NCBI GenBank assembly: GCA_020348065.1
Contig: CP070742.1
Coordinates: forward strand, 312,494 to 376,493
Length of the DNA stretch: 64,000 nt
Reading direction: 5' to 3'
DNA from: Candidatus Zixiibacteriota bacterium
GTDB lineage: Bacteria > Zixibacteria > MSB-5A5 > UBA10806
The notes beneath the pieces are model-generated. The model saw only the letters and a program-made list of their open reading frames with translations. It made no database searches and was not told where the DNA came from. Below are positions 1,248-43,900 of this stretch, in pieces (positions within the stretch are counted from its first letter, which is position 1; each line of letters starts with the position of its first letter). The position numbers were made by a program, and so were the translations under genes.

Positions 1248-3449
1248 TTATTTTAACAACATCATTTTCCCTGCTTTAAATCCGCCCGCCGTATTGATTT
1301 TATAAAAATATATTCCCGAAGGATTGTTATGCGCCTGCCAGATTGCCTCATTTTCACCGGCCGGTTTTATATCGCGTACTATATTTTCAATTTTCTGACC
1401 GAGCACATTATAAATATCAATTTCGACAAAGGTTTCCCAGGATAAATCGTATTTTATGGAAACCGAGGAGTTAAATGGATTGGGATAAATAAAAGCGGAG
1501 AGGTTATGACTTACAGTATTTTCGAGGGATTTATAAATATCGGTCTGACCCATCGGCGCTCCCGTCACCCACTCCGTGGCGCTTAAAGCGCCATGATTGC
1601 CGTTTCCCGTGAAATCGTTTACGAATTGGCCGTTGCCCTCATTCATAAGCCAGTATCCGACCAGACCGGGTTCGCTGCCGTCTAAGTACTGATACATATA
1701 TGACTGAATCTCGCCAGCGGTTCTCACAACATTCCAGACCCTGACTTCGTCAATGACACCATCGAAAGTATTAATCAATGATGCTGAATTGCCGATCATC
1801 AAATCGATTGCGGAATTATCGTTCAGGGCGCCGGAAGGCGGGAGGGTTTGCGTAATTGTCTGCTCGGAGCCGTTGAGATAAATTTTCACCTCGCCCGCGG
1901 GCCCATCGTATGAAGTCGCGACATGCTGCCAGGTATTGAGCACAATCGAACTTTCGGGTATCGCCGAAAAGCTGTTCCCGCCGCTTTGAGTGAATAACCA
2001 GAGGCAGAGGGTGTTGTCTCCCAGGACAGGATTTGATTTTAAAGTAAAAAACCGGGTTACGTCCTTATCCACTATCCTGCCGAATCCGGTTCCGGGATTT
2101 TCGCCCCACCCGAACGGATTTATCCAGGCTTCTACGGTAAACTGATCTGTCAGGTTAATTGTCGGAGACGCCGGAACCGTGACAACGCTTTCTTCACCGT
2201 CAAACAACAGGGCGCTTTCACCGCCGAAAACTAAAACATAATCTTCCCGTACCCTGCTTTTATAAACTGTATCACAACCTATGATGAGCTCCACACTATA
2301 TGACCCTGCAGAGTTATAGGTCCATTCGGGATTCTGATCATATGAATCCACAATTCCATCGTTATTAAAATCCCACTCCCATGATGTTATGGTCCACTCG
2401 GGATTTGAAAGATCATTGAATTGAACGGTTAACGGAGACTGACCAGTTAACGGTTCCGCCGAAAAATCGCAAGGATTGATAGTTCCCATGGCTTCGGCCA
2501 GAAAGGAAAGCGAAATGGAAAAACGGTCAGGATTATAATGCCCGCCGGGGAAAAGCGGGAAAGCGTAATCCAGATTCAGGAGAGCCAGCGAATCGGCGAA
2601 CGCCATATTCATACTCATTTCCAAAAAAAGACCGCCATATCCGCAGTCGAAGTAAATAGCGGGCTCCTGCCCTGAAGGGATCTGGGCAGCAAGCGTCGGC
2701 AGGTTGTTTGGTTGCCATCTTGCGATAACGGTATCAACAACTCCACCGGAAGAATCCAGGGGAAAATCCACCTGGTAGGGTGAATTATTCAGGTTCGGTG
2801 AAAAAGCTCCGGCGCAGGTAAAAGCAATATTCGTTAATGTCCCATTGTTATAATTATATGTATACGGCGGGCCGGTACCGTTTTCCAAAAGAATATAATC
2901 TACCCAGCTGTAAAGACCGAAAACGACCTCCAGAAAGCCGTTGTGTGAAACCACAGCCCCGAATTTATCCGTATGTTTGAACGCGAGCTTCATGGCGCCG
3001 TAACCACCCATACTGTGCCCCATTATCGACCGTTTCCAACGAACCGAATTCGTGGAATAATTGGAATCGATAAACGCAATAAGATCCATGACTATATAAT
3101 CCTCAAAATCACCGTACAGTTCGGAATTTGTATAAAAACTGCCATCAAACGGGCCGACACCACCGTCTGGCATTACCAGAATCATCGGATCAAAACAACC
3201 ATTCGTAATCATGCTGTCAAGATAGTGGTATATTTCGACATAACCGGTATAATCGGCCAATGTGCCGTGGAGAAAATAGATCACCGGATAAAGTATTGTA
3301 TCGTTGGGATCGTAGCCTTCGGGAAGATAGATACACATATTTCGCGTTTCCCCCAGAGAATTGCTGTAAAACGATACTGTTTCCACAGATCCCTGGGAAA
3401 GAGTCAACGTTGGAATAAATAGAAAGAAAATCGTGGCAATCCGCCTCAA
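1248..3449 (-). CDS. Secreted esterase (esterase D/putative esterase fold) - PKD - LamG/concanavalin-like - T9SS-type C-terminal sorting domain
   Basis: 733-aa ORF. N-terminal signal peptide. LYPVIYFLHG and the nucleophile elbow GHSMGGYGA. PKD-like segment (TVQFNDLS..WDFNNDG). LamG-like segment (EAWINP..DEVRVWN). C-terminus IYPNPFNSS...GIYFYKI...KMMLLK is typical of T9SS type A CTDs. Confidence 0.8.
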   Translation of the reverse strand: MRRIATIFFLFIPTLTLSQGSVETVSFYSNSLGETRNMCIYLPEGYDPNDTILYPVIYFLHGTLADYTGYVEIYHYLDSMITNGCFDPMILVMPDGGVGPFDGSFYTNSELYGDFEDYIVMDLIAFIDSNYSTNSVRWKRSIMGHSMGGYGAMKLAFKHTDKFGAVVSHNGFLEVVFGLYSWVDYILLENGTGPPYTYNYNNGTLTNIAFTCAGAFSPNLNNSPYQVDFPLDSSGGVVDTVIARWQPNNLPTLAAQIPSGQEPAIYFDCGYGGLFLEMSMNMAFADSLALLNLDYAFPLFPGGHYNPDRFSISLSFLAEAMGTINPCDFSAEPLTGQSPLTVQFNDLSNPEWTITSWEWDFNNDGIVDSYDQNPEWTYNSAGSYSVELIIGCDTVYKSRVREDYVLVFGGESALLFDGEESVVTVPASPTINLTDQFTVEAWINPFGWGENPGTGFGRIVDKDVTRFFTLKSNPVLGDNTLCLWLFTQSGGNSFSAIPESSIVLNTWQHVATSYDGPAGEVKIYLNGSEQTITQTLPPSGALNDNSAIDLMIGNSASLINTFDGVIDEVRVWNVVRTAGEIQSYMYQYLDGSEPGLVGYWLMNEGNGQFVNDFTGNGNHGALSATEWVTGAPMGQTDIYKSLENTVSHNLSAFIYPNPFNSSVSIKYDLSWETFVEIDIYNVLGQKIENIVRDIKPAGENEAIWQAHNNPSGIYFYKINTAGGFKAGKMMLLK

Positions 3450-3752: not shown

Positions 3753-3827
3753 TCACCAGATTTCGCACTCCAAGCTTGCTCCCGTAGAGGTTTCTAATTG
3801 ATAATCGAATACTTAAGAGGAGTCGCC

Positions 3828-6800
3828 ATGAAAAAATCTATATTGCTATTCACTGCAGCATGGCTATTGGGTTTATATACCATCATATTTTCTAGCGTCT
3901 GGCAGAGAGACGTGGCCGACAGCACCGGTACATATAAAGGACTGTACAATTCTATGGCAATCGATAGCGAGGACAACCCGCATATCGCCTACTATGACGA
4001 AGATTTCAACGACCTCAGATATGCTTATTTCAACGGTGAAACCTGGTCGGTCGAAGTCGTAGACAGCATCGGTGATGCGGGGCTCTACTGCAGTATCGCC
4101 CTGGATTCGCAGAACGTACCTCATATAAGCTACCAGCAGGAATACCTCGGTTACCACTGGAGTCTCAAATACGCCACCCCGGCCGACACGGGATGGTATA
4201 AGATTTTCGTCGATTGTTCCTATGATACCAGCATCGCCGAAATCGGAGAATACTCGAGCATCGCGATTAATAACGACGGCTATCCATGCATATCTTATAC
4301 GCAGAACGGGCCTGACGAAGTAAAATATGCCTATAAAGACAGCGGCGGCTGGCATATCGACGTCGTCAATAATGATGTATATCAAACATACTATAATATG
4401 TTGAGATTATTCAACGGCGAAACGCCGGTAATAGGATATCATAGGCTGGGCGACCAGAACGATAATATCATGGAAATCGCCTCCTATAACTCGGCCGATT
4501 CAAGCTGGACTATCGTACAGGTACCCGATTCCGCTGAATATATAAGTTACGGAGATATGCTCGGATTTGATATAGACAATCAGAACAATTTTTATTTCAT
4601 GTATATCAATTCCGATTATGACCTTCAACTTGCCAGATACATCAAAAGCAGCCAGAGCTGGCTTATCGAAACATATCTGGACTACCCCTATTTCGGAGGC
4701 GCTCCGACAATTTATCTTAAAATTGACAATGCGGGCAATCCCTGCCTGGCGGCTTTCCAGGGCGAAATCTATTTTTACAGAAAACATAACGGGCAGATTG
4801 ATACATCCCTGGTCGATGAGCTGATCTCCCCCGCCTGGTGGTGTTGCCTGGATTTCGACAGTGAAAATTATCCGCGTCTTTCCGCATATGCTCATACGCC
4901 GGACTACAGCTACGGTTTATTCTATTATCGCTACTGGCCGGGAGATCCGACTATAATTCTCCCGGAAACATTCCATAATTACGGCGTTGTCTGGACGGAG
5001 AGCTATTCCGACTGGAACTGTCCTGTCGAGAATACCGGGACGGCGCCCCTGATAATAAGCGATCTCGTAACCGCCTCGCACTGGACCGACAGCTCTTTTC
5101 AGGTCATTAACGTTTCCCTTCCAATGACAGTTTTGCCGCAGAAATCCGATTCCATAACCATTCGTTTCACGCCCTTCGAAGATCTGGTTTACTATGACAC
5201 GCTTATTATCTATTCCAATGATTCCCTCCATCCCGAGGAACGCGTCGCTCTTCAGGGCACGGGAACATCCAGCGGCGATTTCGGCGATCTGACTGTCTAC
5301 GCCAGGAACTGCTATGCCGCCCTGGAATATCATGAATTGAATGAATCTCCGTTAACCGGCGCGCAGATATCTCTCTATCAAAATAACCAGCTTATCTACG
5401 GCCCGGTGGAATCGGGTACCGATGGGTCGGCGTATCTGGAAAACGTGGCAACCGGCGTATATAATCTGACGGTAGCCAAAGAGACCCTGATACCCGGAGA
5501 AGTGCCCGTACCGGATACGCTGGGACGAACATTTACGATTGAAGTCGGCCCGGGGACAAATACCGAATCAATTGTGCTTCCGGAATCTTTAACCGTGCAG
5601 AAGTATCAATCCATCTACGATCTTACCCATATCATACGGGAAGGTCCGCTGGGAGATACCGTATATATGTTCAGCTACCCTGCTGAACTGGAGGTGCGAG
5701 AATTGCTGGATTCATGGCAGCTCGATCTCGACCCGACCGTAAAGTTGAGCATTGCCAGACTGTATCTGGCCGAAAGAATGACCGACCTGATGTTCGGCTG
5801 CGGCTACTCCATAGGCGGCGCATTCGTTCATTGTATTACCGAGCTGATAAATTTCATATTTTTCTCGGATTCCTGGTTTGACGAAATTATTGATTTCCTG
5901 ACTTTCATCTGGAATCTATTCACCGATCCCATTTCCGCACTCCTGGACGTCGTAAACGCGTTCGCCAGATCATTATTGCTGGGCTTGATGGATGATGCTA
6001 TCCAGCAGGCGGCGGCGGAGCTTCCCTGCATTACATACAATTCAAACGTGATAGTCTGCGGCGAGGAAATCGTGGTGGATGCCTGGAGAGAAATAAAAGA
6101 GGAATTCTCGGGATGGGAACGCATATTCCCCGGATTTTCCGATGATTCCTGGGATGAAACCGAAAAATTCATGCATCGGGTTCTAATGGGCCCTCTCTTT
6201 CAGGTTGTCTACGTTGACCTTCTAACTAACGGCCAGATAGAAAAGGCCAGGGAATATTCCGAAAACTTCCAGTTTGATGGAGAATTCTCCGAAGCTTCCG
6301 AATATTCCGAATGGTTTATAAGCGACAGGACGGACGACGTTGAAACCGACGCGGATATCTGCCGGGACCTGATAATGTCCGCGCAATTATTCTACGCAAC
6401 TGCTACTCTGCTTGATATCGCCGGGAATCTCATACCGGGAGCCGGCATTCTCAGCTCCATCGGTGATGCTTTGGAAGTAGCAGCTTATATAGAAGTTATC
6501 GCGGGCATAGGAATCTCCGGACATACGTTTTTTACTCTGCCGGACCAAATGGACTATGCCGTAGACCGAATTTATCATCCTAACGGTTTATTACAAGAAA
6601 GACCGGATACCCGCTGTCCCTGGCCCCGTTCAAAGATGGATCCATCGCTAATTGCATCTTTGAAAACCAACCTTCAGCAAAGCTCCGAAGAGTACGATTC
6701 CACCCTGAGCAACATCGGAAATCTTATACAATCGGGCGATTACGAAAGCGCTTTGCTGGGCCTGGAAGACCTGATGAATGCCGAAAGCGATTTCAGAAAC

Positions 6801-7730
6801 GATCTCAACGTCTCCTGCGCGCCGGTCTACGCTATGGCAAATATAGCGAGGGACAGCCTGGCTGGTTTTCAAACAATATATGATTCCCTGAAATCCGAAT
6901 ATGCCGGCTCTGGAATGGGACGATTCAAGGATCTTCTTTACGTGGCTTTCTCTCCCGCGGATTCCGGACAGGAAATGATCGACAGCGTTCTGGCTCAGAT
7001 CGACAGGTCGATTTTACAAAATCAGGCTCTGGTAAACCGCGTCGGTGAAACCCTCGACACCGTCTCGGTTCTGGATATGCCGGCCATCGTAACCGTAAGC
7101 GACGCCGGCCAGAACGTTTATGATCTGGGACAGGGTCAAACCGCCACTATACGGTTAAGCCTTAAAAACGTGGGCGCCTTGCCTGCGGAAAATGTCAGCC
7201 TGGTTATGAGCACTAATGACGCCCTATCCATAAACGAGGCCGATAGCATGTATATAGGAAGCCTTCAGCCCGGAGAAGAAACCGAGACATATACCTGGAC
7301 TGTCGAACTGGCAAACAACGACTACTCACGGGGGATCTGGACTGCCAATATCAATTCCTCCAATGCCAGGACTTTTCCCTATAGCGGATCTCTTGTTACG
7401 CCATTGGTTATCACCCCCCCTACCGGCGGCAGGCTCACCAGGGATAACGTTTATTGTTATCCCAATCCTTTCAATCCCGACATCGTGGAAACGACCCTGA
7501 GATACAGCCTGGAGAGGGCCGCCGAGGTAACGGTTAGGATTTATGACGCCGGCGGTAACCTGGTGATAACCTTGATGGATGACGTTCGACAACCTGCAGG
7601 CGAGGAATTGAGCGTCGTATGGGAAGGCAGAAACGGTAAAGGAGACGTGGTTTCCAACGGTGTCTATTTCTTTATTATAGAGACGTCGGAAAATGAACGC
7701 GCGGTTGGCAAAATCGCGGTCTTAAGATAA
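3828..7730 (+). CDS. Large secreted multidomain protein: beta-propeller-like repeats, Ig-like/CARDB-like domains, long helical-hydrophobic core, FlgD-Ig/T9SS-like C-terminal domain
   Basis: The ORF is open from 3798 (TTG). ATG 3828 preceded by AAGAGGAG gives MKKSILLFTAAWLLG, a signal peptide. Repeats of the form SIAxDSxxxPHISY occur at about 45-aa spacing. Carboxypeptidase-regulatory-like segment (GAQISLYQNN..GVYNLTV). C-terminus CYPNPFNPD...GVYFFIIE...GKIAVLR. Confidence 0.75.
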   Translation: MKKSILLFTAAWLLGLYTIIFSSVWQRDVADSTGTYKGLYNSMAIDSEDNPHIAYYDEDFNDLRYAYFNGETWSVEVVDSIGDAGLYCSIALDSQNVPHISYQQEYLGYHWSLKYATPADTGWYKIFVDCSYDTSIAEIGEYSSIAINNDGYPCISYTQNGPDEVKYAYKDSGGWHIDVVNNDVYQTYYNMLRLFNGETPVIGYHRLGDQNDNIMEIASYNSADSSWTIVQVPDSAEYISYGDMLGFDIDNQNNFYFMYINSDYDLQLARYIKSSQSWLIETYLDYPYFGGAPTIYLKIDNAGNPCLAAFQGEIYFYRKHNGQIDTSLVDELISPAWWCCLDFDSENYPRLSAYAHTPDYSYGLFYYRYWPGDPTIILPETFHNYGVVWTESYSDWNCPVENTGTAPLIISDLVTASHWTDSSFQVINVSLPMTVLPQKSDSITIRFTPFEDLVYYDTLIIYSNDSLHPEERVALQGTGTSSGDFGDLTVYARNCYAALEYHELNESPLTGAQISLYQNNQLIYGPVESGTDGSAYLENVATGVYNLTVAKETLIPGEVPVPDTLGRTFTIEVGPGTNTESIVLPESLTVQKYQSIYDLTHIIREGPLGDTVYMFSYPAELEVRELLDSWQLDLDPTVKLSIARLYLAERMTDLMFGCGYSIGGAFVHCITELINFIFFSDSWFDEIIDFLTFIWNLFTDPISALLDVVNAFARSLLLGLMDDAIQQAAAELPCITYNSNVIVCGEEIVVDAWREIKEEFSGWERIFPGFSDDSWDETEKFMHRVLMGPLFQVVYVDLLTNGQIEKAREYSENFQFDGEFSEASEYSEWFISDRTDDVETDADICRDLIMSAQLFYATATLLDIAGNLIPGAGILSSIGDALEVAAYIEVIAGIGISGHTFFTLPDQMDYAVDRIYHPNGLLQERPDTRCPWPRSKMDPSLIASLKTNLQQSSEEYDSTLSNIGNLIQSGDYESALLGLEDLMNAESDFRNDLNVSCAPVYAMANIARDSLAGFQTIYDSLKSEYAGSGMGRFKDLLYVAFSPADSGQEMIDSVLAQIDRSILQNQALVNRVGETLDTVSVLDMPAIVTVSDAGQNVYDLGQGQTATIRLSLKNVGALPAENVSLVMSTNDALSINEADSMYIGSLQPGEETETYTWTVELANNDYSRGIWTANINSSNARTFPYSGSLVTPLVITPPTGGRLTRDNVYCYPNPFNPDIVETTLRYSLERAAEVTVRIYDAGGNLVITLMDDVRQPAGEELSVVWEGRNGKGDVVSNGVYFFIIETSENERAVGKIAVLR

Positions 7731-7742
7731 GGAGACGGCAAA

Positions 7743-8675
7743 ATGAAATGTCCGATAACGTTTTATGTCATCATATTTCAGATCTTATTGTGGTCGCCCT
7801 GTTTATCTGAAAGCGAATGCGGAGGAAGTGCCGGTGCCTTTCTTGATATCGGCATAGGCGCCAAGGCAATTGCCATGGGAAAGGCGTATTCAGCTATGGC
7901 TGGCGACGCCACGGCGTTGTTCTGGAATCCTGCGGGCTTGGCGCTTTCTGATAAAAAGGAAATCTCCGCTATGCACGCGTTTATATTCGAAGATCGGGCG
8001 ATCAATTACGCCGCCTTCGTGTATCCGATTTCCGGACACTCCCTCGGCGCGGCCTGGATCCGGTTCGGCGTTACTGGCATACAGGAAAGAGGCGATACCG
8101 GTCAATTAATCAGCGAATTCTCCGACTCGGAAAATCTCTACATGCTCGGTTATGGAAGATCCTTATGGTCTGATGCCTACAAGTCCATCAGCCTGGGGAC
8201 AACGATCAGGTATTATTATCATTCATTATTCGGCTACTCCGCCAGCGGCTGGGCGGCGGATTTCGGCGCGCTGTTTACATTATATGAGCAGGGTTTTGCC
8301 AATAATTTGAATCTTTCAATTGCCGTCCAGAATATCGGGGGCGATATCAAATGGAATACTCCGGGCAGCCTTGAAGAAAATATCCCGACTTCATTCAGAT
8401 TCGGTTCGTCGGCCGAATTAAACAGTCTGCCGATTACATTTGCCATAGATCTGGAGAAACAGGAAGATAGGTCCGTCAGATTTCATTCGGGGCTGGAATA
8501 TGTATACGGTTCAATTTTGCCGCTTCGAATAGGGTTCAGCCATAAATATCTCTCGGCCGGAATCGGATACATAATAGAAACCGGGAAAACCGACATTATC
8601 GTCGATTACGCCTTTACCGACGATCGAATTTCTGATAGGGGATTGCATTTCTTTTCCATCGGTGTGAGATTTTAA
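7743..8675 (+). CDS. PorV/PorQ-family-like outer-membrane beta-barrel protein
   Basis: 310 aa with a signal peptide. N-terminal motif GAKAIAMGKAYSAMAGDATALFWNPAGLA is as in PorV/PorQ-type barrels. Alternating beta-strand pattern and a terminal aromatic residue (GVRF). Starts 12 nt after the preceding cargo gene. Confidence 0.55.
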   Translation: MKCPITFYVIIFQILLWSPCLSESECGGSAGAFLDIGIGAKAIAMGKAYSAMAGDATALFWNPAGLALSDKKEISAMHAFIFEDRAINYAAFVYPISGHSLGAAWIRFGVTGIQERGDTGQLISEFSDSENLYMLGYGRSLWSDAYKSISLGTTIRYYYHSLFGYSASGWAADFGALFTLYEQGFANNLNLSIAVQNIGGDIKWNTPGSLEENIPTSFRFGSSAELNSLPITFAIDLEKQEDRSVRFHSGLEYVYGSILPLRIGFSHKYLSAGIGYIIETGKTDIIVDYAFTDDRISDRGLHFFSIGVRF

Positions 8676-8742: not shown

Positions 8743-8773
8743 AAGAAGGGCTGATACGATATCAGCCCTTCTT
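8743..8773. terminator. Perfect 14-bp hairpin between convergent genes (candidate bidirectional terminator)
   Basis: aagaagggctgata (8743-8756), loop cga, tatcagcccttctt (8760-8773). Located between the stop at 8675 (+) and the stop at 8816 (-). U-tracts are weak. Confidence 0.5.
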
Positions 8774-8815: not shown

Positions 8816-11089
8816 TTACTTAATTAATTTCCTGTCCTTTGATTTGCTTGAACGATCCCTGGTCATATCTTTCAACTTATCTCTAATCATCTGCATACGT
8901 ATTAATTCCGGCGGAGGACAATCCGCGCAGGGCATGGGATCGGCTCCGCCCTTGAAATAGGCCACGCCGTAGGTGATATCCAGGCCGTTGTAATTGCAAC
9001 TGCCGTTTACATCCCCGGAAACATACCAGATATTGCCGGGCGTGCACTCGCATTCATAAAGGGGAGCCGCACCGCCCTTGAAAAACGCTACACCGTAGGT
9101 AATATCCAGCCCGTTATAGCCGCCGCTGCCGTTCACGTCGCCTGCTACGTAATCGCATCCCGGACCCCCGCAACCGTAACCTATCTCCGCGGTCGCTTCC
9201 AGAAAATCAAATTCCCCGCCTGTTGCCACCAGAGAATCATTAAGAAATACATTGTAATAGCCGTTACCATTATCGCAGCAAATCCCGTCTCCGTACTCAT
9301 CGTAAATTATAAAATCATAACAGCCGGAATTTTCAGCGCAAATATATTCGACAAACAACATGTTGCGGCCGTTGTAAGGACCGCCGGAACCGATAACATC
9401 GGAGGTTCCGCTTTCCAGTATCTCCCATGTTGTCTCATAGGGATAATTGTCGGTCATTATCTCGATTACAATACTATCTTCAGGGCAACCGCCGCAGGGC
9501 GGATTGAAATCGGCGCAGGTCCCGTCAATTATAAATCTCACATCCGGTCCCTGGCAGCTATCCCGTTCAACGTTCTCATTGCATTCCGCCAGATCATCGT
9601 TACAGCACGCCCCCGTTATTGCCGGACAACCGTTGCCGACGTACGAAAAAAACGCGGAATCTCCTGCAAAACTATGGTTAGACTCTATCACAATCGAATT
9701 CAGGTATAGTTCATAGTATGCAGGTATAATCAAACCGTCTCCGTACTCATCATATATTATGAATGTGTAACATTCACTGGAATCCACGCAGACCGTATCA
9801 ATATATAAAGTATTTATATTATCATAAGGTCCGCCTGAAGCTATGTTCGCTCCTGCCGTATTCCTTAGAATCCATGTCGTTTCATCGGGGTAATCGTCGG
9901 TTAGGATGTGAACCTGCAATTCATCCTCCGGGCACTCGACTCCTCCCCCGCCGCAGGGGGGATTTAATTCGGAGCAGGATGAGAAGGCCCCGAAGCGACC
10001 TGCACAGCTGTCCCGCAAAACGTTCTCTTCGCATATTCCGCTTGAATCGTCGCAACATGCGCCAAGGATCGAGCCGCAGCCGTCGCCGATTCCAGCCACG
10101 GTATCCGCGACGCCATATTGACCTCCGGAATCAACCAGAGCCCCGTTAAGATAGATTCTATAATAACCTATCCCGTAACCGCAGCAGATTCCATCTCCTT
10201 CGGAATCAAAAATATAGAAATCGTAACAACTGTCGGGAGCGGCGCAATAATAATATTGATAAAGAGTGTTGTAGGCGTCCAGTCCTCCATACGCGACACC
10301 ATAGCCGGTACCGCCCGCGAAAAGGCCCCACGTTATCTCACTCGGATAATCGTCCGGCATGATTTCAATTGTAATTACGTAATCCAAACACCCCCCGCAG
10401 GGCGGGTTAAAATCTTCACACCTCCCGTCAGCAATAAATCGCATGGACGATCCCTGACAATTCTGTTCCTCTATACGCTCATTGCAATCGGCGGTTGTAT
10501 CATCACAGCAGGCGCCCAGCACCGGACCGCAACCGCTGCCGAGATGGGATACTATCAAAGATTCAGCACAGAATGTATTGTTGTAAATCAGCAGGCTGTC
10601 ATTGAGGTAAATTTCAAAGTAACCCGGCGGGAAGATACCGTCTCCCCATGCATCAAAAATCGCAAAACTGTAACATCCCGTGGAGTCCGCGCAAATAAAA
10701 TTTTTGATTAGCGTGTCCGGCAGGTTTGAGTAAGGTCCACCCGATGCCAGTACGCCACCCGATTCGTCTCTTAATTCCCATGTGATCTCACTTGGATCAC
10801 CATCGGTCATAATATGAATTTCAAATAGATCCTCGGGGCATCCCCCGCACGGCGGGCTGAAATCTTCACAGCTTCCGTCCGCCATAAATCTCATGTTCGG
10901 TCCCTGGCAGTTCTGTTCTTCGATATTTTCGTTACATTCGCCAGTTGAATCGTCGCAACAGGCGCCCCAGATCTCAACCCGGGTTTCACCCGGATTCCGG
11001 GACATGGCAGTAAAAGAAATTAGTAATATTATAACAAGCACCGCAAGCACTGATTTTAAGCCAAAGCCTTTTAGCATTTTTATGTTCAT
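8816..11089 (-). CDS. Secreted cysteine-rich modular protein: 4 x (GACC Cys-knot-like module + TDxYPxETxW module) + two dockerin-like repeats + basic tail
   Basis: 757 aa with a signal peptide (MNIKMLKGFGLKSVLAVLVIILL). Four alternating module pairs. C-terminus has GDVNGSGGYNGLDITYGVAFFKGG and GDVNGSCNYNGLDITYGVAYFKGG. Lys/Arg-rich end. Confidence 0.8.
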   Translation of the reverse strand: MNIKMLKGFGLKSVLAVLVIILLISFTAMSRNPGETRVEIWGACCDDSTGECNENIEEQNCQGPNMRFMADGSCEDFSPPCGGCPEDLFEIHIMTDGDPSEITWELRDESGGVLASGGPYSNLPDTLIKNFICADSTGCYSFAIFDAWGDGIFPPGYFEIYLNDSLLIYNNTFCAESLIVSHLGSGCGPVLGACCDDTTADCNERIEEQNCQGSSMRFIADGRCEDFNPPCGGCLDYVITIEIMPDDYPSEITWGLFAGGTGYGVAYGGLDAYNTLYQYYYCAAPDSCYDFYIFDSEGDGICCGYGIGYYRIYLNGALVDSGGQYGVADTVAGIGDGCGSILGACCDDSSGICEENVLRDSCAGRFGAFSSCSELNPPCGGGGVECPEDELQVHILTDDYPDETTWILRNTAGANIASGGPYDNINTLYIDTVCVDSSECYTFIIYDEYGDGLIIPAYYELYLNSIVIESNHSFAGDSAFFSYVGNGCPAITGACCNDDLAECNENVERDSCQGPDVRFIIDGTCADFNPPCGGCPEDSIVIEIMTDNYPYETTWEILESGTSDVIGSGGPYNGRNMLFVEYICAENSGCYDFIIYDEYGDGICCDNGNGYYNVFLNDSLVATGGEFDFLEATAEIGYGCGGPGCDYVAGDVNGSGGYNGLDITYGVAFFKGGAAPLYECECTPGNIWYVSGDVNGSCNYNGLDITYGVAYFKGGADPMPCADCPPPELIRMQMIRDKLKDMTRDRSSKSKDRKLIK
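9403..9570. repeat. Near-identical tract shared with 11753-11920 (copy A)
   Basis: My base-by-base comparison at a constant offset of 2350 nt finds 2 mismatches (9450, 9566) in 168 nt. The flanking homologous sequence is clearly more diverged. Confidence 0.8.
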
Positions 11090-11158
11090 GGTTTTAATTT
11101 CCTATATTTAGTCCTTACGTGTAAATAGCCGGGGCTTTTAAAGCACACGCTCTTCTCC

Positions 11159-13618
11159 TTATTTTTGCTTCTTTATCTTCTTAACATGATCCCCGGTATT
11201 ATAACCATCGAGATCATTTCTTATCAGCTTTCCGGAATCCGATGATATGCTAACCGCAGGGTTCGGAGGACAATCCGGGCAGGGCATGGGATCGGGACCG
11301 CCCTTGAAATAGGCCACGCCGTAGGTAATATCGAGTCCGTTGTAATTACAACTGCCGTTTACATCTCCCGAAACGTACCAGATATTGCCGGGCGTGCACT
11401 CACATTCATACAGGGGAGCCGGTCCGCCCTTGAAAAAGGCTACACCGTAGGTAATATCCAGCCCGTTATAGCCGCTGCTGCCGTTCACGTCGCCTACCAC
11501 GTAATCGCATCCCGGACCGCCGCAACCGTAACCTATCTCCGCGGTCATTTCCAGGTAGTCGAATTCTCCGCCCGCCGCTACCAGAGAACCATTGAGAAAT
11601 ACGTTGTAATAGCCATTTCCGCAATCACAGCAGAGACCGTCCCCGGAGTAGTCGTAAATTACAAAATCATAGCAACCGGAATTTTCTACACACAAATATT
11701 CGATAAACAGAGTGTTATAATTGTTGTAAGGACCGCCGGATCCAATAACGTTGGAGGTTCCGCTTTCCAGTATCTCCCATGTTGTCTCATAGGGATAATC
11801 GTCGGTCATTATCTCGATTACAATACTATCTTCAGGGCAACCGCCGCAGGGCGGATTGAAATCGGCGCAGGTCCCGTCAATTATAAATCTCACATCCGGT
11901 CCCTGGCAGCTATCCTGTTCGATGTTTTCATTGCAATCGGCCAGATTATCATCACAGCACGCGCCGGTTATAGCTGGACAACCGTTGCCCACATAAGGGA
12001 CTGCCGCGGAATCACCCATAAAACTGTGATTCGACGCTATCAAATCGGAATTCAAATAAAGTTCATAGTATCCCGGAATTATTATGCCGTCACCCCATTC
12101 ATCATAAATCGTGAATGTATAACATCCGGTGGAATCCACGCAGACCGTATCGATATATAAATTATATGGAATTGCATAAGGTCCGCCTGAAGCCACAGTT
12201 GTTCCTGCGGTATCCCTCAAAACCCAGATGGTCTCGCCAGGGTATTCATCGGTCATAATATACACCTGCAGCTCGTCCTCGGGACAGCCGTTAATGGCGC
12301 CGCACGACGGATTCAAATCAGCGCAAGATGTAAATGCCGTAAAGCGAGTGGTACAGCTATCCTGTAAAACGTTTTCATCGCATACCCCGGTGGAATCATC
12401 GCAACATGCGCCCCGGATCTCAACCAGCGAATCGCCCACGATTCTCACCAGATAAAAATCGGACGGGTAACTGAACGAAGCCGAATATCCAAATGCGACA
12501 TATCCACCATCCGCGGTCTGTTTTATTGAAAAGCAAAAATCGTAATTATGCCCGCCATAAGTCTTCTCCCAGCTTATATTACCGCTGGAGTCGATTTTCA
12601 TTACGTAAAAATCTTTCTCCCCCATGCCGAAAGATTCCGTGCGGCCGCCCACGATATAACCGCCATCAAACGTCTGCCAGGCCTCCTGGTCCATCTCGGC
12701 ATTAACCCCTCCGTAAGTACGTATCCATTCAGGGTTTCCATTAGAATAGGTTTTTATCAGGTAATTATCGGCGCTTCCGGCGCCGTAAGAAAATGTATAG
12801 CCGGCGATTATATAACCTCCATCGGAGGTTTGCTGAACCGTGTTGCCGCCCTCGCCGTAGGCGCCTCCAAAGGTTTGCGTCCACAATATATCGCCGTTGG
12901 CATCGGTCTTTACCAGCCACACGTCGGAACTGCCGGATCCGAATGAATAGGTCGACCCGGTAAATATAAATCCGCCATCCGATGTCTGCTGCCCGCAATA
13001 GCCGTCCTCGCGGGCGGAACCGCCATAGGTTCTGGCCCATAATGTATCACCGTTAGCGTCAGTCCTCAACATCCACACATCATAATTGCCGGCGCCGAAA
13101 GAATCGGTCCTGCCGACTATCACATACCCGCTGTCGGATGTCTGGCGCACCGAAAAACTCTTTTCCCAGCTGGGACCGCCATAAATCCGTGTCCATAAAG
13201 AATCCCCCGCAGAGTCGATTTTCATCAGCCATATGGACGAGGTTTCGGTCGCTGTGGAAGACGTATGCCCGGTAACGATGTAACCTCCGTCAAATGTGGG
13301 CTGAATATCATGCGCTATTTCTTCCCGGCCCCATCCGTAAACCCTGGTCCAGAGCGTATCACCCCATGCGTCGGTTCTTACAAACCAGAAATCGGCGCTT
13401 CCCGCGCCATATGATGCCGTCATGCCTACGGCCAAAAAACCGTCATCGCTGGTTGGAGTGACCGCGTGACCCTGATCCCAGAGGGTACCGCCATAAATCC
13501 TCGTCCATAGCGTATCGCCCGGGTTCTGGGACATGGCAGTAAGAGGAATTAGTAATATCATAACAGGCGCTGCAAGTACTGCTTTAAAGCCAATGCCTTT
13601 TAGCATTTTTCCGTTCAT
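11159..13618 (-). CDS. Secreted protein: beta-propeller (SBBP-like) repeats + 2 Cys-rich module pairs + dockerin-like pair + basic tail; paralogue of 8816..11089
   Basis: 819 aa. Signal peptide homologous to that of its neighbour. About 7 repeats of GDTLWTRTYGG..QTSDGGY..G.T.S.G.G..D.WL.KTD. Then the GACC and TDxYPxETxW modules. C-terminal 350 nt is collinear with the other two genes. Confidence 0.8.
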   Translation of the reverse strand: MNGKMLKGIGFKAVLAAPVMILLIPLTAMSQNPGDTLWTRIYGGTLWDQGHAVTPTSDDGFLAVGMTASYGAGSADFWFVRTDAWGDTLWTRVYGWGREEIAHDIQPTFDGGYIVTGHTSSTATETSSIWLMKIDSAGDSLWTRIYGGPSWEKSFSVRQTSDSGYVIVGRTDSFGAGNYDVWMLRTDANGDTLWARTYGGSAREDGYCGQQTSDGGFIFTGSTYSFGSGSSDVWLVKTDANGDILWTQTFGGAYGEGGNTVQQTSDGGYIIAGYTFSYGAGSADNYLIKTYSNGNPEWIRTYGGVNAEMDQEAWQTFDGGYIVGGRTESFGMGEKDFYVMKIDSSGNISWEKTYGGHNYDFCFSIKQTADGGYVAFGYSASFSYPSDFYLVRIVGDSLVEIRGACCDDSTGVCDENVLQDSCTTRFTAFTSCADLNPSCGAINGCPEDELQVYIMTDEYPGETIWVLRDTAGTTVASGGPYAIPYNLYIDTVCVDSTGCYTFTIYDEWGDGIIIPGYYELYLNSDLIASNHSFMGDSAAVPYVGNGCPAITGACCDDNLADCNENIEQDSCQGPDVRFIIDGTCADFNPPCGGCPEDSIVIEIMTDDYPYETTWEILESGTSNVIGSGGPYNNYNTLFIEYLCVENSGCYDFVIYDYSGDGLCCDCGNGYYNVFLNGSLVAAGGEFDYLEMTAEIGYGCGGPGCDYVVGDVNGSSGYNGLDITYGVAFFKGGPAPLYECECTPGNIWYVSGDVNGSCNYNGLDITYGVAYFKGGPDPMPCPDCPPNPAVSISSDSGKLIRNDLDGYNTGDHVKKIKKQK
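11753..11920. repeat. Near-identical tract shared with 9403-9570 (copy B)
   Basis: See copy A: 166/168 identical at offset 2350. Confidence 0.8.
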
Positions 13619-13650
13619 GGTTTCAATTCCTTTATTTACCCCTCATGCGT

Positions 13651-13680
13651 AAAAAAAAACGGGGGCTTTTGGAGCCCCCG
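13651..13680 (-). terminator. Rho-independent terminator of gene 13695..16862
   Basis: Read on the minus strand: CGGGGGCT-CCAAA-AGCCCCCG followed by TTTTTTTTT. This is an 8-bp GC-rich stem (13660-13667/13673-13680) plus a 9-nt U-tract (13651-13659), 15 nt after the stop. Confidence 0.8.
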
Positions 13681-13694
13681 TTGTCAATCGCCGT

Positions 13695-16600
13695 TTATCT
13701 TTGCTTCTTTATCTTCTTCACATGATCCCCGGTATTATAACTATCGAGGTCATTTCTTATCAGCTTTCCGGAATCCGATGATATACTAACCGCGGGATTC
13801 GGAGGACAATCCGGGCAGGGGAAAGGAGCAGCCCCGCCCTTGAAATAGGCAACACCGTAGGTGATATCGAGTCCGTTGTAATTACAACTGCCGTTTACAT
13901 CCCCCGAAACATACCAGATATTGCCGGGCGTGCACTCGCATTCATACAGGGGAGCTGCCCCGCCCTTGAAAAAGGCTACGCCGTAGGTAATATCCAGCCC
14001 GTTGTAGTTGTCGCTGCCGTTCACGTCACCTACTACGTAATCGCATGCGGGACCGCCGCAGGGCGGATCGAAATCTTCACACCTTCCGAAAGCTATAAAT
14101 CTCATAGTTGGTCCCTGGCAGTTTTGTTCTTCGATATATTCGTTACAATCGCCGGTTGAATCGTCGCAGCAGGCGCCGAGAATCAGGTCCCCGCAGGGCG
14201 GATCGAAATCTTCACACCGTCCGTCCGCTATAAATCTCATGGTCGGTCCCTGGCAGTCCTGTTCTTCGATATTTTCGTTACAATCGGCGGTTGAATCGTT
14301 ACAGCAGGCGCCAAAAACCGGACAGCTTATTTCTAAAACAGTATCGGTAGCTCCAAATTGGCCGCCGGAATCAACCAGAGCGCCGTTGGAATAGATTCTG
14401 TAATATCCGATCCCGTAATCACAGCAGATTCCATCCCCCGCAGTATCAAAAATATAGAAGTCGTAGCAGCTGTCGGGATCGGCGCAGTAATAATATTGAT
14501 AAAGCGTATTGTAGGCGTTAAGCGGTCCTCCATACGCGACAACATAGCTGGTGCCGCTTCGGGTCAGAATCCATGATATCTCATTCGGATAGTCGTCCGG
14601 CATTATCTCGATAACGATTTCGTCTTCGGGACATCCTCCGCAGGGCGGATTGAAGGCGGCACAGGTGCCGTTGGGCATAAAGCGCATTGACGGTTCCTGG
14701 CAGTTCTGCTCTTCGATATTCTCATTACAATCGGCGGTCGTATCATCGCAGCACGCCCCGTAGAGAGGTCCGCAGTCGTCGCCAAGACGCGGTATTGTCA
14801 ACGAAAAGCCGTAAAACGTGTTGTTGGATTCCAGAAGAGTTCCGTTCAGATAAATCTCGAAATACCCCGGAGGGGCAAGGCCGTCACCATATGAATCAAA
14901 AATAGTAAAACTGTAACATCCTATGGAATCGGCGCAAACATAATCGGTAAACAGCGTAATCTGCTCGGGATAGGGACCGCCCTGTGCTACTATAATGTTG
15001 CTGCTATTCCGTAATTCCCACGTGGTTTCGTCAGGCCCATAGTCGGTCATAATCCTAATTTCGAACAGATCCTCGGGGCATCCTCCGCACGGCGGGTAGA
15101 AATCGTCGCAGAATCCGTACTCGATGAACCTGCGGTTGCCGCCCCCGCAGTCAAACAGGTCGACATACATATTGCATTCTGCAAGAGAATCATCGCAACA
15201 GGCGCCCAGTCCGCCGCAACGGCTGCCCACGTAGGAGACAAACGCCGAATCGCCGTCAAAGCTGTAATCGGCCCCGACCAGCTGGGAATTCAAATATATC
15301 TCGAAATATCCGGGGGGAGTGATTCCGTTCACGCCGGAGTCGTATATTACAAAATTATAACATTCTAGCGAATCCACGCATACGGTGTCGACAATTAAAG
15401 TATTGTTCTGGCCGGGATACGGCCCGCCGGATGCTATCAGGCTGTCGTCTTTGTCGGTAAGCTCCCAGGTGGTCTCTTCCGGGAAATCATCGGTCATAAT
15501 CTTCACCAGAATTTCGTCTTCGTCGCAGCCCGCACCCGTGCCGGGGCAGGGAGGATCCATATCCACACAGAGAGTATCGGGCGCGAATCTTGCGGTACAT
15601 TGCGATTGCAGAACGTTGTCTTCGCAGATACTCAGCGTATCGTCGCAACACGCTCCGCGGGGTTCGCCCTGCAGCCCGCTGTTTATCGCTACCAGCCAGA
15701 AATCGTATTTCCCGATAGCGCTAAATGCATTGGAATGGCCGATGGTCATGAAGACGGTGTCGTCGGCTATACACCCCCCCCATCCGTACTCCCTGTATTC
15801 GGTTTTGCCGTAAGTCCGCTCCCAGATAACCGTACCCTGGGAATCTGTCCTGACGACATAGAAATCATCCGCAGGAGTTGGACCCTTACCGCCGAAAAGA
15901 GCATACCCGCCGTCAATGGTCTGCGCGATCTCCGCAGCCCTTTGAGAGCTCGATATGCCGTAATTTTTCTGCCAGATAAGGCTGCCGGCAGGACTGACCT
16001 TCAATACGTAAGCTCTCATTCCACCGCCGAAAGATAATGTAAAACCGCTGATCATGAAATCGCCGTCCGAGTTTTCGATAACCGACCAGGCTTCGTCATT
16101 TAATGTGCCGCCAAAGGTGTTTTCCCACTCCACGCCGCCGGTAAAGTTTGTTTTCACCACGTAAACGTCATCGTTACCCGACGCGTTAGTTTTACCTACG
16201 AGAATATACCCCCCGTCGCTCGTTTGCGTGACACAATTGCCGTATTCATCGGTCCGGTTGCCGCCGTATTCTTCGTCCCAGGCTAAATTTCCATTGGCGT
16301 AAGTCTTCACAAGATACGCGTTATGATATCCCTGGTTGCCCTGGTTCCATCCTGTAAGTATATATCCTCCGTCGGATGTCTGCTCGACCGACCAACCGAA
16401 ATCCGAATTGCTTCCCCCGAACGTTCTGGTCCACATGGTATCGCCGTTTGCGTCGGTTTTTATGAGCCATATATCATACTCATTTGTCGCTACCGCCGCA
16501 CTACCGGTAACGATATATCCTCCGTCTATGGTCTGTTGTACATCCTTAGCATAATCTACGGTGGCGATGTCCCCGCCATAGTTATAGTATTTTGACCAGA

Positions 16601-16862
16601 CTTGGTTGCCGACAGCATCCGTCTTCACCAAAAAGAAATTATATGACCAAAAATCCGGGATTTCTACTCCCATGCCACATAATATAAACCCCCCGTCTGA
16701 AGTTTGCCTGACCGCCTCACCCCAATCAGCCCCCTCCATACCGTAATTATGCGTCCAGATAGTATCGCCGGGGATCTGCGCGAAAAGCAATGCCGGCAGT
16801 AACCACACGATAGCTATCAGGTAAGTTAAGGTGGAGCTCATACTTGTCCTGTAGTTTTCCAT
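13695..16862 (-). CDS. Secreted protein: beta-propeller (SBBP-like) repeats + 3 module pairs + 2 extra GACC modules + dockerin-like pair + basic tail; third paralogue
   Basis: 1055 aa. GGGAG lies 6 nt upstream of ATG 16862. Repeat and module architecture matches the neighbours. The last 35 aa are nearly identical to those of 11159..13618 (PNPAVSISSDSGKLIRNDLD.YNTGDHVKKIKKQ). Confidence 0.8.
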   Translation of the reverse strand: MENYRTSMSSTLTYLIAIVWLLPALLFAQIPGDTIWTHNYGMEGADWGEAVRQTSDGGFILCGMGVEIPDFWSYNFFLVKTDAVGNQVWSKYYNYGGDIATVDYAKDVQQTIDGGYIVTGSAAVATNEYDIWLIKTDANGDTMWTRTFGGSNSDFGWSVEQTSDGGYILTGWNQGNQGYHNAYLVKTYANGNLAWDEEYGGNRTDEYGNCVTQTSDGGYILVGKTNASGNDDVYVVKTNFTGGVEWENTFGGTLNDEAWSVIENSDGDFMISGFTLSFGGGMRAYVLKVSPAGSLIWQKNYGISSSQRAAEIAQTIDGGYALFGGKGPTPADDFYVVRTDSQGTVIWERTYGKTEYREYGWGGCIADDTVFMTIGHSNAFSAIGKYDFWLVAINSGLQGEPRGACCDDTLSICEDNVLQSQCTARFAPDTLCVDMDPPCPGTGAGCDEDEILVKIMTDDFPEETTWELTDKDDSLIASGGPYPGQNNTLIVDTVCVDSLECYNFVIYDSGVNGITPPGYFEIYLNSQLVGADYSFDGDSAFVSYVGSRCGGLGACCDDSLAECNMYVDLFDCGGGNRRFIEYGFCDDFYPPCGGCPEDLFEIRIMTDYGPDETTWELRNSSNIIVAQGGPYPEQITLFTDYVCADSIGCYSFTIFDSYGDGLAPPGYFEIYLNGTLLESNNTFYGFSLTIPRLGDDCGPLYGACCDDTTADCNENIEEQNCQEPSMRFMPNGTCAAFNPPCGGCPEDEIVIEIMPDDYPNEISWILTRSGTSYVVAYGGPLNAYNTLYQYYYCADPDSCYDFYIFDTAGDGICCDYGIGYYRIYSNGALVDSGGQFGATDTVLEISCPVFGACCNDSTADCNENIEEQDCQGPTMRFIADGRCEDFDPPCGDLILGACCDDSTGDCNEYIEEQNCQGPTMRFIAFGRCEDFDPPCGGPACDYVVGDVNGSDNYNGLDITYGVAFFKGGAAPLYECECTPGNIWYVSGDVNGSCNYNGLDITYGVAYFKGGAAPFPCPDCPPNPAVSISSDSGKLIRNDLDSYNTGDHVKKIKKQR
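14058..14312 (-). repeat. Intragenic tandem duplication (period 135 nt = one 45-aa GACC module)
   Basis: 14058-14176 and 14193-14312 align with few mismatches. They encode GACCNDSTADCNENIEEQDCQGPTMRFIADGRCEDFDPPCG and GACCDDSTGDCNEYIEEQNCQGPTMRFIAFGRCEDFDPPCG. Confidence 0.75.
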
Positions 16863-17099: not shown

Positions 17100-17481
17100 T
17101 CATTTTATCATTGTTATTTCCCGGGAAATTTCGTTACCGTCAACTAACAGCCTGCAGAAATAGATGCCGGTAAAGTATTTTCCGCCATCCCATTCTAAAT
17201 AATCGAATAAAAACCGGTATCCTGATTTCCATAACATATTGTTTCCAAATAGGTTCCCGGCAAATCACATACGTTCTGTCGTACACCGCATTATCATTAT
17301 TAAGATCATTGAAATTTATGTCCTCGTTATAAACAACAAGCCGAACCGTTGCCGTATCATCGTCTGTGCAGAAATTAATACCCTGCCGTATTGTGGCATA
17401 ATTATCCGGGATACTAATAACTGAAGCGGATATTCGGAATATGGGAAATAAAGATAGCAATATCGCTAATTGTCTAAACAT
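17100..17481 (-). pseudogene. Collapsed remnant of a T9SS cargo gene (signal peptide + first about 70 codons, frameshifted onto the last about 35 codons of a CTD)
   Basis: The 113-aa ORF starts with MFRQLAILLSLFPIFRISA SVISIPDNYATIRQGIN..DDDTATV..YNEDINF, a typical beta-helix cargo N-terminus. In a different frame, ending at stop 17100-17102, I read YRFLFDYLEWDGGKYFTGIYFCRLLVDGNEISREITMIK, a typical T9SS CTD end. Confidence 0.45.
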
Positions 17482-33929: not shown

Positions 33930-34778
33930 ATGAATCCCGTTAACAGCGATGGTAGCCTGAAGAAACTCGCGGAAGAGCGTGACAGCCTGATTGCCATCCT
34001 TGAAAATATTCAGGCCAAGTATGGCTATTTGCCTGAAGATGCATTAAGAGAGGTTGCCACGGAAACCGGCAGGTCCCTGGTGGATATTTACGGCGTGGCC
34101 ACGTTTTACCGGGCCTTCAGCCTTAAACCGAGAGGTCGACATCTGGTATCGGCATGCCTCGGTACCGCCTGCCATGTGCGCGGCGGCCCGGTTATCGCCA
34201 AGGAAATCGGCAAACAGCTCGATATAAAACCGGGACAGACCGCCTCGGATAATGAATTCACCTTTGAAACCGTGAACTGTCTCGGAGCATGTGCCCTGGG
34301 ACCGGTAGTTGTTGTGGATGGCCACTATTTCCCCAATATGAAGACCTCGATAGTTAAACAGATCCTGGAAAAATCAAAACTGGGTCTTGAAGCGATTGAA
34401 ATTGACACCGATCAACGTGTTTTCCCGGTGGAGGTTAGTTGTTCGAGGTGCAACCACAGCCTGATGGATTCCGGCCATCTTATCGACGGACATCCTTCAA
34501 TTCGCATAACCATATCTTTCGGCAATGTTCATGGCTGGCTTGCTTTGTCGAGCCTTTATGGCAGCTATAACGTTTCCTCTGAATACGAAATTCCTCCTGA
34601 TATAATTGTTAATTTTTTCTGCCCGCATTGCCATGCCGAGCTTTTAGGGGCCTCAAAGTGCGGAGAGTGCGGCGCTCCCATGGTACCGATGATCGTCAGA
34701 GGGGGAGGGGTAGTACAAATTTGTTCTCGCCGGGGCTGCAAAGGTCACATGCTGGATCTGGACGGCGTAAATGTTTAA
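33930..34778 (+). CDS. NuoE/HoxE-like thioredoxin-fold [2Fe-2S] protein with C-terminal Cys4 zinc-ribbon-like extension
   Basis: 282 aa. YGYLPEDALREVA...VATFYRAFSLKP.GRHLVSACLGTACHVRGG...VNCLGACALGPVVVVDG. A C-terminal extension of about 120 aa has the pairs CSRCNH, CPHCHAEL, CGECGAPM and CSRRGCKGH. Confidence 0.8.
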   Translation: MNPVNSDGSLKKLAEERDSLIAILENIQAKYGYLPEDALREVATETGRSLVDIYGVATFYRAFSLKPRGRHLVSACLGTACHVRGGPVIAKEIGKQLDIKPGQTASDNEFTFETVNCLGACALGPVVVVDGHYFPNMKTSIVKQILEKSKLGLEAIEIDTDQRVFPVEVSCSRCNHSLMDSGHLIDGHPSIRITISFGNVHGWLALSSLYGSYNVSSEYEIPPDIIVNFFCPHCHAELLGASKCGECGAPMVPMIVRGGGVVQICSRRGCKGHMLDLDGVNV

Positions 34779-34815
34779 TTGATAAGTTAAATGAAATTGA
34801 CAATGGGATAGAATT

Positions 34816-38666: not shown

Positions 38667-38687
38667 TATAAACGGAGGAAAAATACA

Positions 38688-40277: not shown

Positions 40278-40398
40278 AAAATATATTAAAAATAAAGCTT
40301 AATCGATATGCCGGGTGACTCGGATTCTCCTTGCCTGGGGACATAAATCCGTAAGTTTCAGATTTCACAAATCAGCCCGGCATATTGATTTTATAAAA

Positions 40399-42460: not shown

Positions 42461-42462
42461 CT

Positions 42463-43890: not shown

Positions 43891-43900
43891 TCATTACCGG

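Follow-up and report, generated by a model that had tools for sequence, protein, structure and literature searches.

What function could be served by three adjoining genes for cysteine-rich, modular proteins in a member of the Zixibacteria, an uncultured phylum that is common in sediments? The genes, here termed g1, g2 and g3, lie consecutively on the minus strand of a stretch of 64,000 nucleotides (the window) from contig CP070742.1 of the Candidatus Zixiibacteriota bacterium assembly GCA_020348065.1. An earlier note, made from the DNA sequence without database searches, had described three such genes of 757, 819 and 1055 amino acids (aa), and open reading frames (ORFs) of these lengths are present at exactly the positions that it gave (Table 1). 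The three proteins share a C-terminal module that is predicted to have the fold of type I dockerins, and this module, hereafter the tag, was also found on many other proteins of related genomes. It is proposed here, with moderate confidence, that g1-g3 are Sec-exported, non-catalytic, multi-module ligand-binding proteins, with the tag anchoring them at the cell surface or within a complex.

Architecture of the three proteins

The general picture drawn in the note, of secreted proteins that are modular in structure, is supported. The N-termini of g1-g3 look on inspection of the sequence like classic Sec signal peptides lacking a lipobox Cys, and no catalytic family was identified in any of the three proteins using Pfam and NCBIfam, either with the whole proteins or with isolated modules. 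Two Cys-rich module types, A and B, alternate as A-B units in all three, as the note had proposed and as motif mapping and alignment now confirm. Its count of about seven N-terminal beta-propeller repeats on the two larger genes was also correct. In both g2 and g3 the motif W-T-R-x-Y-G-G ... Q-T-S-D-G-G-Y ... D-x-W-L-x-K-T-D recurs in seven regular repeats, each about 52 aa long, and the repeats of the two proteins are 42% identical. The scores of these propellers against known families are all below threshold, namely 25.5 against 27 bits for DUF5122, 29-30 against 76.5 for TIGR02608 and 29-35 against 400 for NF047494.

Taken over the whole proteins, the Cys content is 3.8-6.7%; in the A/B regions it rises to 7.6-8.4%. 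The note had put the content at six to seven Cys for each A module and at more for each B module. The first figure is close, with exactly six Cys in each A (42 aa), but B has just 4-7 Cys in 107-110 aa, which places it below A in density.

The dockerin-like C-terminal module

The tag has two copies of the sequence G-D-V-N-G-S-x-x-Y-N-G-L-D-I-T-Y-G-V-x-Y-F-K-G-G, as seen in alignments of 11, 28 and 74 sequences. In g1 these provide two loops of the pattern D-x-N-x-S-x-x-x-N-x-x-D, with a helix after each, together with six conserved Cys. The EF-hand calcium loop of type I dockerins carries D/N-type residues at positions 1, 3, 5, 9 and 12, and it is at these positions that the D, N, S, N and D of the tag are found, invariant or nearly so in both halves (28 and 74 sequences).

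An AlphaFold model of the tag shows two loop-helix units with helices at residues 16-26 and 58-68. For most of the core, the block values of its predicted local distance difference test (pLDDT) are 81-95; they fall to 63-68 in the linker that joins the units, and the tail that follows is unstructured or of low confidence. When this model was compared with the PDB using Foldseek, the best 20 matches were all dockerins, with template modelling (TM) scores to the target of 0.46-0.79 (at least 0.6 in 18 of the 20), root-mean-square deviations of 1.9-6.4 Å and probabilities of up to 0.98. A PDB sequence search with the tag profile gave nothing usable, and the Pfam model Dockerin_1 matches three of 74 tagged relatives at E<1e-4. 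According to its model, the C-terminal module folds like a type I dockerin, and the patterns of both calcium loops are intact. The hint in the earlier note that cohesin-like partners should be looked for was therefore apt.

Use of the tag across the lineage

The tag is not particular to the array. A profile search identified 516 proteins which have it, several of them from the genome of the window itself, and when species-representative genomes were scanned, 179 stretches with the tag were confirmed, from about eight Zixibacteria-type metagenome-assembled genomes (MAGs). At least 109 tagged ORFs were found in 77 loci of about eight MAGs, most with the tag at their end and often in tandem, and the genome CP070813.1 has at least 24 tagged loci. 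The passengers of the tag are diverse and include CarboxypepD_reg (17 of 74), FG-GAP, SdrD_B, Big_5, LVIVD, beta-lactamase, S8, M14, PAD_porph, cupredoxin, BNR and beta-helix domains. About a fifth of the tagged proteins stop right after the CPP of the module and have no tail. Untagged neighbours often bear type IX secretion system (T9SS) sorting domains, namely Por_Secre_tail and FlgD_ig, on similar passengers.

Given this lineage-wide spread over diverse passengers, the tag appears to serve the secretome in general as a docking module or address at the C-terminus, with g1-g3 as one family within the set. The note had regarded the array as a candidate for an undescribed extracellular system. 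This does not hold for the three genes by themselves, but it does for the lineage-wide set of proteins with a common C-terminal tag, the array included.

Among the tagged proteins there is also an abundant family of about 160-200 aa, in which a signal peptide and some 55 aa of a further domain (QNYQIDWYVIASGGG...GFWVG) precede the dockerin-like tag; its members sometimes occur in tandem (P0137, P0200, P0175, P0197, P0129 and P0209; loci L047, L051, L059 and L064). One of its members, P0137, has a weak, sub-threshold match to the pilus protein PamT of the Candidate Phyla Radiation type (E 6e-6, 25.8 against 240 bits).

The A module

Module A is 42-45 aa in length and always has six Cys, with the consensus GACCDDxxxxCxxxxxxxxCxxxxxRFxxxxxCxxxxPPCGG. 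No match to it was found in Pfam or NCBIfam with the isolated module or in PDB sequences with its profile, while a homolog search with the 42-aa profile, which is very short, produced eight word candidates and no match. Among the homologs already collected, A is present in 29 proteins with 71 copies, 39 of them directly before a B and 14 before another A, and one protein has eight copies in tandem. From this placement, A would be a small disulfide module in its own right, in many cases capping a B. In the structural model described below, it appears as a six-cysteine knot forming one compact unit with B.

The B module and its family

B is 107-110 aa long (about 108). An AlphaFold model of one A-B unit, built from an alignment of 59 sequences, has a mean pLDDT of 95.7 and a predicted TM score of 0.84, and consists of a three-stranded A followed by B as an eight-stranded beta-sandwich. 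No Pfam or NCBIfam model matches B, even at E<=10, and a PDB sequence search with the A-B profile, which models the B columns only, gave nothing usable. Foldseek comparison of the A-B model with the PDB returned nothing at E<1e-3, the best match being MmpS5 (TM 0.56), and against viral models it recovered only other B-containing proteins with no function assigned. Matches to galectin, CBM and C2 domains had TM scores of less than 0.3 and were rejected as generic beta-sandwich noise. The earlier note, which could not assign a function, is supported here in that neither A nor B matched a curated family or a solved structure.

The B family is nevertheless very large: at a cut-off of E<=1e-3 an exhaustive profile search gave 13,065 representative clusters, and with E<=1e-10 it gave 7,787. 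Its hosts include Bacteroidota, where it occurs in secreted peptidases, Planctomycetota, marine Euryarchaeota, where it occurs with lysyl oxidases, and a eukaryotic transcriptome. The partners of B in these proteins are peptidases of families M12B (reprolysin-like), M43, M4, S8 and S1 (trypsin-like), lysyl oxidase, Omp28, a cohesin protein and a MAM domain like that of InhA; a T9SS sorting domain is also present very often. In this company, B behaves as an accessory or targeting domain.

Among 541 distinct copies of B, the most conserved residues are D13, D63 and G68 (99% each), followed by G76 (96%), D67 (93%), W21 (91%) and E18 (88%), giving the signature T-D-x-Y-P-x-E-T-x-W ... D-x-x-G-D-G-I-C-C. 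The pair Cys70-Cys71 is present in 81% of these copies, its two Cys occur together (phi 0.92) and they are often the only Cys of the domain. Other Cys pairs co-occur at a phi of 0.2-0.35, from which no connectivity could be assigned beyond the Cys-Cys pair. Cys70-Cys71 probably forms a vicinal disulfide or else a functional site of two paired thiols, and the acidic site that it adjoins probably binds calcium. All nine B copies of the window fit the profile and keep D13, E18, W21, D63 and G68, while D67 is replaced by N in the first B of g3. The Cys-Cys pair is kept in four of the nine, with the other five having a shorter, Pro-containing loop in its place.

It should be mentioned that the first hairpin of B (W-x-L ... 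I-A-S-G-G-P-Y) gives a short local match to DUF1508/YegP (UPF0339) in two proteins, P0023 (residues 561-584) and P0029 (547-570). This 48-residue family (PF07411) was rejected as an identity for B, since the sub-match, seen in these two proteins and against PDB 3bid (E 1.5), covers just 24-30 residues and none was seen in g1-g3; a shared hairpin motif or chance may account for it. A further B module (E 3e-34) is found in an untagged ORF of 1271 aa for a large protein of secreted type with no Pfam match, which lies directly downstream of a tagged gene in CP070813.1 (locus L015, 4523-8335).

Authenticity and evolution of the array

The earlier note allowed for the possibility that the array was an artefact of collapsed or expanded repeats. 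Copies of A are 41-88% and copies of B 36-85% identical as protein, and the DNA repeats are 60-92% identical; this divergence rules out an assembly repeat of that kind. The ORFs are also intact, and three further assemblies contain the array as well, with two tandem genes in the same neighbourhood in CP070813.1, one ortholog each of g3 and g2 in a Logan contig and a further occurrence in another MAG (locus L003). The chance that the genes are an artefact or decaying pseudogenes is accordingly next to nil and this explanation is regarded as refuted. The survey of copy number in related genomes which the note had advised gives three genes here compared to two in CP070813.1.

B modules of the gene family cluster into four types, alpha, beta, gamma and delta, with identities of 64-78% within a type and 38-50% between types. 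Two lineages of paralogs can be recognised by the order of these. The first has a propeller, alpha-beta-gamma, optional free A modules and the tag, and comprises g3, P0002, P0005, P0006, P0007 and P0008. The second has a propeller, alpha (sometimes twice), delta and the tag, and comprises g2, P0011, P0009, P0003 and the second gene of locus L001. No second protein with the architecture of g1 was found among the homolog-search matches examined. With no propeller, the order beta-gamma-alpha-delta, the leader of g2 and the tail type borne by g2 orthologs in other genomes (type 1), g1 is a chimera of both conserved lineages, combining beta-gamma units of the g3 type with alpha-delta units of the g2 type.

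The ends of the genes proved less uniform than the note had claimed. A common signal peptide and 5′ leader is found for g1 and g2, which are 86% identical over the first 100 nucleotides and 68% over the 70 nucleotides upstream, but not for g3 (about 48% and 40-44%, read as not detectably homologous). Likewise, near-identical C-terminal ends are a feature of g2 and g3, in which the 123 nucleotides at the 3′ end of the gene, with the tail and stop codon, are 94% identical, whereas g1 has the other tail type (56-58%); it is the module of about 82 residues before the tail that all three share, at 83-92% DNA identity. As the g2 tail has this identity to that of g3 while g2 orthologs have a tail like that of g1, the sequences suggest a recent gene conversion of the 3′ end of g2 to the g3 tail type.

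Proposed function and alternative explanations

On the explanation proposed at the outset, the proteins would have a working part, formed by the propeller in g2 and g3 and then by a rigid string of A-B units in all three, and an attachment part, formed by the disulfide-stapled, calcium-loop-bearing tag and its basic tail. Following export by the Sec pathway, the proteins would undergo oxidative folding and be loaded with calcium. The C-terminal module would then dock onto a cohesin-like or other surface protein, either at the surface of the cell or within a complex outside it, where the propeller and the four differentiated B types could bind an extracellular macromolecule, possibly a protein or glycan matrix. 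The retention of the four B types and their order among orthologs argues for differentiated, selected functions and distinct binding roles.

A number of points weigh against this explanation. The Foldseek E-values for the tag, a small domain, are 0.1-3 and not significant by themselves, and the g1 tag lies under the threshold of Dockerin_1 (16.7 against 22.9 bits, E 0.008). The disulfides and the calcium binding of the modules are read from sequence patterns only. The fold of B is without an informative solved neighbour (the E-value for MmpS5 is 0.019). The host is a diderm, and the proteins would also have to cross its outer membrane. Finally, the search for cohesin partners for which the earlier note had called identified none in about 660 kb of sampled DNA (the window and related loci), though by weak methods: a jackhmmer search started from one cohesin domain, and a Pfam summary of 81 untagged neighbour ORFs, which has no cohesin but covers the 25 commonest families only.

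A wider version of the proposal, offered tentatively and with less than even confidence, is that the Cys-stapled tag represents a docking and surface-display system of the Zixibacteria with dozens of cargo proteins per genome and a partner other than a canonical cohesin, for which g1-g3 would be non-catalytic substrate-binding subunits. If this is true, B would be a major ligand-binding fold, in which the vicinal Cys-Cys disulfide adjoining the calcium site forms the binding site.

The main rival, considered unlikely, is that the tag is a sorting, secretion or covalent anchoring signal of a lineage-specific export pathway parallel to that of the T9SS domains, making g1-g3 mere cargo. Such a signal would suit the mostly C-terminal position of the tag on at least 109 proteins with unrelated passengers, the conservation of the tail as a basic segment and the frequent presence of Por_Secre_tail or FlgD_ig on similar passengers encoded by neighbouring genes, as well as the gene of the PorV/PorQ family that adjoins the array in CP070813.1 as it does in the window. 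The T9SS sorting domains that are known, however, are beta-sandwiches, while the tag is an alpha-helical pair of calcium loops, and the tail is missing from those tagged proteins that end right after CPP. The PorV/PorQ gene, moreover, lies directly behind a gene with an FlgD_ig-type end on the same strand, and pairing with that gene is the simpler explanation for its position. Peptidases provide another possible role, as B is usually fused to them, with some 37 of about 109 B proteins outside the g1-g3 gene family having a peptidase domain in a hand count. It is very unlikely, though, that g1-g3 are regulators or inhibitors of secreted peptidases, given that B is found with at least five unrelated peptidase families as well as with non-peptidases (lysyl oxidase, Omp28, cohesin proteins), partners so varied that a targeting domain fits better than a clan-specific inhibitor; nor does any peptidase gene adjoin the array.

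Two further explanations were raised in the earlier note. It is improbable that g1-g3 form a variable surface or adhesin family, in which modules are shuffled for evasion of phages or predators or for a change in adhesion specificity. The recombination of g3-type and g2-type units behind a g2 leader in g1, the apparent conversion of the g2 tail and the difference in copy number from CP070813.1 are all features that shuffling could produce, but the module types and their order are kept as orthologs in at least six proteins from other genomes, which speaks against a family of antigens under rapid variation, and the repeats seen included none that were near-identical. It is hardly to be expected either that the proteins are extracellular metal-binding or redox scaffolds with Cys, above all the Cys-Cys pairs, as thiolate ligands. 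The high Cys share of the A/B region could be read in this way, as could the presence of B in copper-dependent lysyl oxidase proteins and the fact that its Cys-Cys pair often provides the only Cys of the domain and adjoins an acidic cluster. No positive evidence for metal binding was found, however, and the six conserved Cys in each of A, the C-terminal module and the family-wide B consensus are consistent with disulfides. The idea is also weakened by the Cys-Cys motif being dispensable in five of the nine window copies of B, and by the Pfam results, in which metal-binding families were few (cupredoxins on other proteins with the tag are an example) and none maps onto A or B. A ligand-binding role, with attachment at the cell surface or within a complex through the tag, is preferred for g1-g3.

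Coordinates and genomic neighbourhood

The positions of the array, its modules and the genes on one flank are given in Table 1. The hairpin directly after the g3 stop codon suggests that g3 is a transcription unit of its own; no terminator-like hairpin was found in the gap between g2 and g1.

Table 1. Features of the g1-g3 array and adjoining genes, in window positions
Feature	Position	Strand	Description
Esterase	1248-3449		T9SS sorting domain
1310-aa protein	3798-7730	plus	FlgD_ig/CHU_C-type C-terminal domain
Outer-membrane protein	7743-8675	plus	PorV/PorQ family; NF033709, 142 bits against a cut-off of 90
Hairpin past g1 stop	8743-8773	minus	Terminator-like; 14 pairs
g1	8816-11089	minus	757 aa, intact ORF; signal peptide, (A-B)x4, dockerin-like module, tail type 1; no propeller
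g1 tail (type 1)	8819-8911	minus	Residues 727-757; basic C-terminal tail, PPPELIRMQ...KSKDRKLIK; low-confidence prediction
g1 dockerin-like module	8912-9157	minus	Residues 645-726; ends in PCxDCPP
g1 A-B region	9158-10966	minus	Residues 42-644; four A-B units, type order beta-gamma-alpha-delta
g2	11159-13618	minus	819 aa, intact; signal peptide, 7-blade propeller, (A-B)x2 (alpha-delta), dockerin-like module, tail type 2
g2 tail (type 2)	11162-11263	minus	
g2 dockerin-like module	11264-11509	minus	Residues 704-785
g2 A-B region	11510-12412	minus	Residues 403-703; two A-B units
g2 propeller	12419-13507	minus	Residues 38-400; seven 52-aa repeats
Hairpin past g3 stop	13658-13682	minus	10 pairs and a T run; intrinsic-terminator-like
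g3	13695-16862	minus	1055 aa, intact; own signal peptide, 7-blade propeller, (A-B)x3 (alpha-beta-gamma), A-A, dockerin-like module, tail type 2
g3 tail (type 2)	13698-13799	minus	
g3 dockerin-like module	13800-14045	minus	Residues 940-1021
g3 A-B region	14046-15656	minus	Residues 403-939; three A-B units, then two free A modules
g3 propeller	15663-16757	minus	Residues 36-400; seven repeats

The PorV/PorQ gene starts 12 bases past the gene for the 1310-aa protein, a layout which resembles pairs of T9SS cargo and PorP/PorV-like proteins. On its other flank the array is followed by genes for an MscS channel, an Omp85/POTRA protein, TamB, CorA, CNNM, a second MscS-type channel and a Na+/H+ exchanger. 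No flanking gene implies an operon function for the array. The gap between g3 and MscS contains the remnant of a decayed gene (17103-17481, minus strand), of which residues 1-61 and about 408-466 are left in different frames with some 345 codons deleted, its intact counterpart in CP070813.1 and the Logan contig being 466 aa in length with a T9SS sorting domain at the end. The GC content of the 16-18 kb interval is low (0.40).

Further along the window, a region at about 40300-45400 also has a low GC content (0.29-0.38 compared to about 0.47 elsewhere) and is probably an integrated mobile element, with a phage-type integrase (44091-45224) adjoining a tRNA-Ser gene (45324-45412), a guanylate-kinase-like protein (41117-42460) and a protein resembling metallo-beta-lactamases and class II phosphodiesterases (42463-43227). 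An NADH-dependent iron-sulfur flavoprotein cluster (33930-40277, plus strand) follows a pair of genes for a histidine kinase and a sigma-54 activator, and encodes a 2Fe-2S protein resembling NuoE, a fusion protein of 1058 aa with NuoF-like and pyridine-nucleotide-disulfide-oxidoreductase parts, a ferredoxin and a protein with a glutamate-synthase domain.

Significance and comparison with known systems

In the searchable literature and the libraries, no description was found of the Cys-stapled dockerin variant, of its wide use in Zixibacteria or of the A module, and no annotation was found of the very large B family. Nothing was found in the searchable literature on a tag-based docking or surface-display system of this phylum, for which the wide use of the tag suggests a cellulosome-like assembly of surface complexes. 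The tag offers a sequence handle on the extracellular proteome of the Zixibacteria. A and B are two confidently folding domains, as predicted, which have no curated model or solved structure, and naming and solving B, with its more than 13,000 representative clusters, would annotate thousands of proteins. The array itself forms a compact experimental set, having four B types both with and without a propeller.

The propellers of g2 and g3 resemble those of SBBP, DUF5122 and delta-60 proteins (PF17164, TIGR02608, NF047494) in that a comparable motif recurs seven times, in repeats about 52 aa long, at the N-terminal end of proteins that are secreted, but differ in scoring below every curated threshold. 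B can be compared to the accessory beta-sandwich domains of secreted peptidases, such as PPC, the proprotein-convertase P-domain and PKD: with about 110 aa in a compact beta-sandwich, it is likewise found between catalytic and sorting domains. Unlike these, it has a signature of its own with no Pfam or NCBIfam match or significant structural match in the PDB, and in the window it forms arrays that are free of enzymes.

With T9SS cargo (Por_Secre_tail/FlgD_ig) the proteins share genomes, neighbourhoods and similar passengers, and two such cargo genes and the PorV/PorQ gene are near the array. However, no T9SS C-terminal domain (Por_Secre_tail, CHU_C, FlgD_ig) was detected in g1-g3 at E<=1 with Pfam and NCBIfam, their C-terminus instead being helical and dockerin-like. 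The number of tagged proteins per genome (CP070813.1 with at least 24 loci; 77 loci with 109 ORFs overall) is reminiscent of the cellulosome. No scaffoldin was found in the DNA sampled, about 660 kb by the weak jackhmmer search and the summary of the 25 top Pfam families.

Dockerin-bearing modular extracellular proteins are a general kind that is already known, and it is to type I dockerins (PF00404; PDB 2mte, 5nrk, 4dh2, 2ccl) that the tag is most readily compared. Differences lie in its host, a diderm candidate phylum, in its passengers, which are mostly not glycoside hydrolases, and in the failure so far to find a cohesin with the methods just mentioned. The tag also has Ser instead of Asp at position 5, six conserved Cys that include those of the PCxDCPP end and of an ECEC-type linker and, usually, a basic tail of 20-50 aa after it. 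Like type I dockerins, however, it contains a segment of about 22 residues in duplicate, made up of a calcium loop of 12 residues (D1, N3, D/S5, N9, D12) and then a helix, it is C-terminal in position and borne by many different proteins per genome, and its predicted fold superposes on theirs with TM scores of 0.6-0.79.

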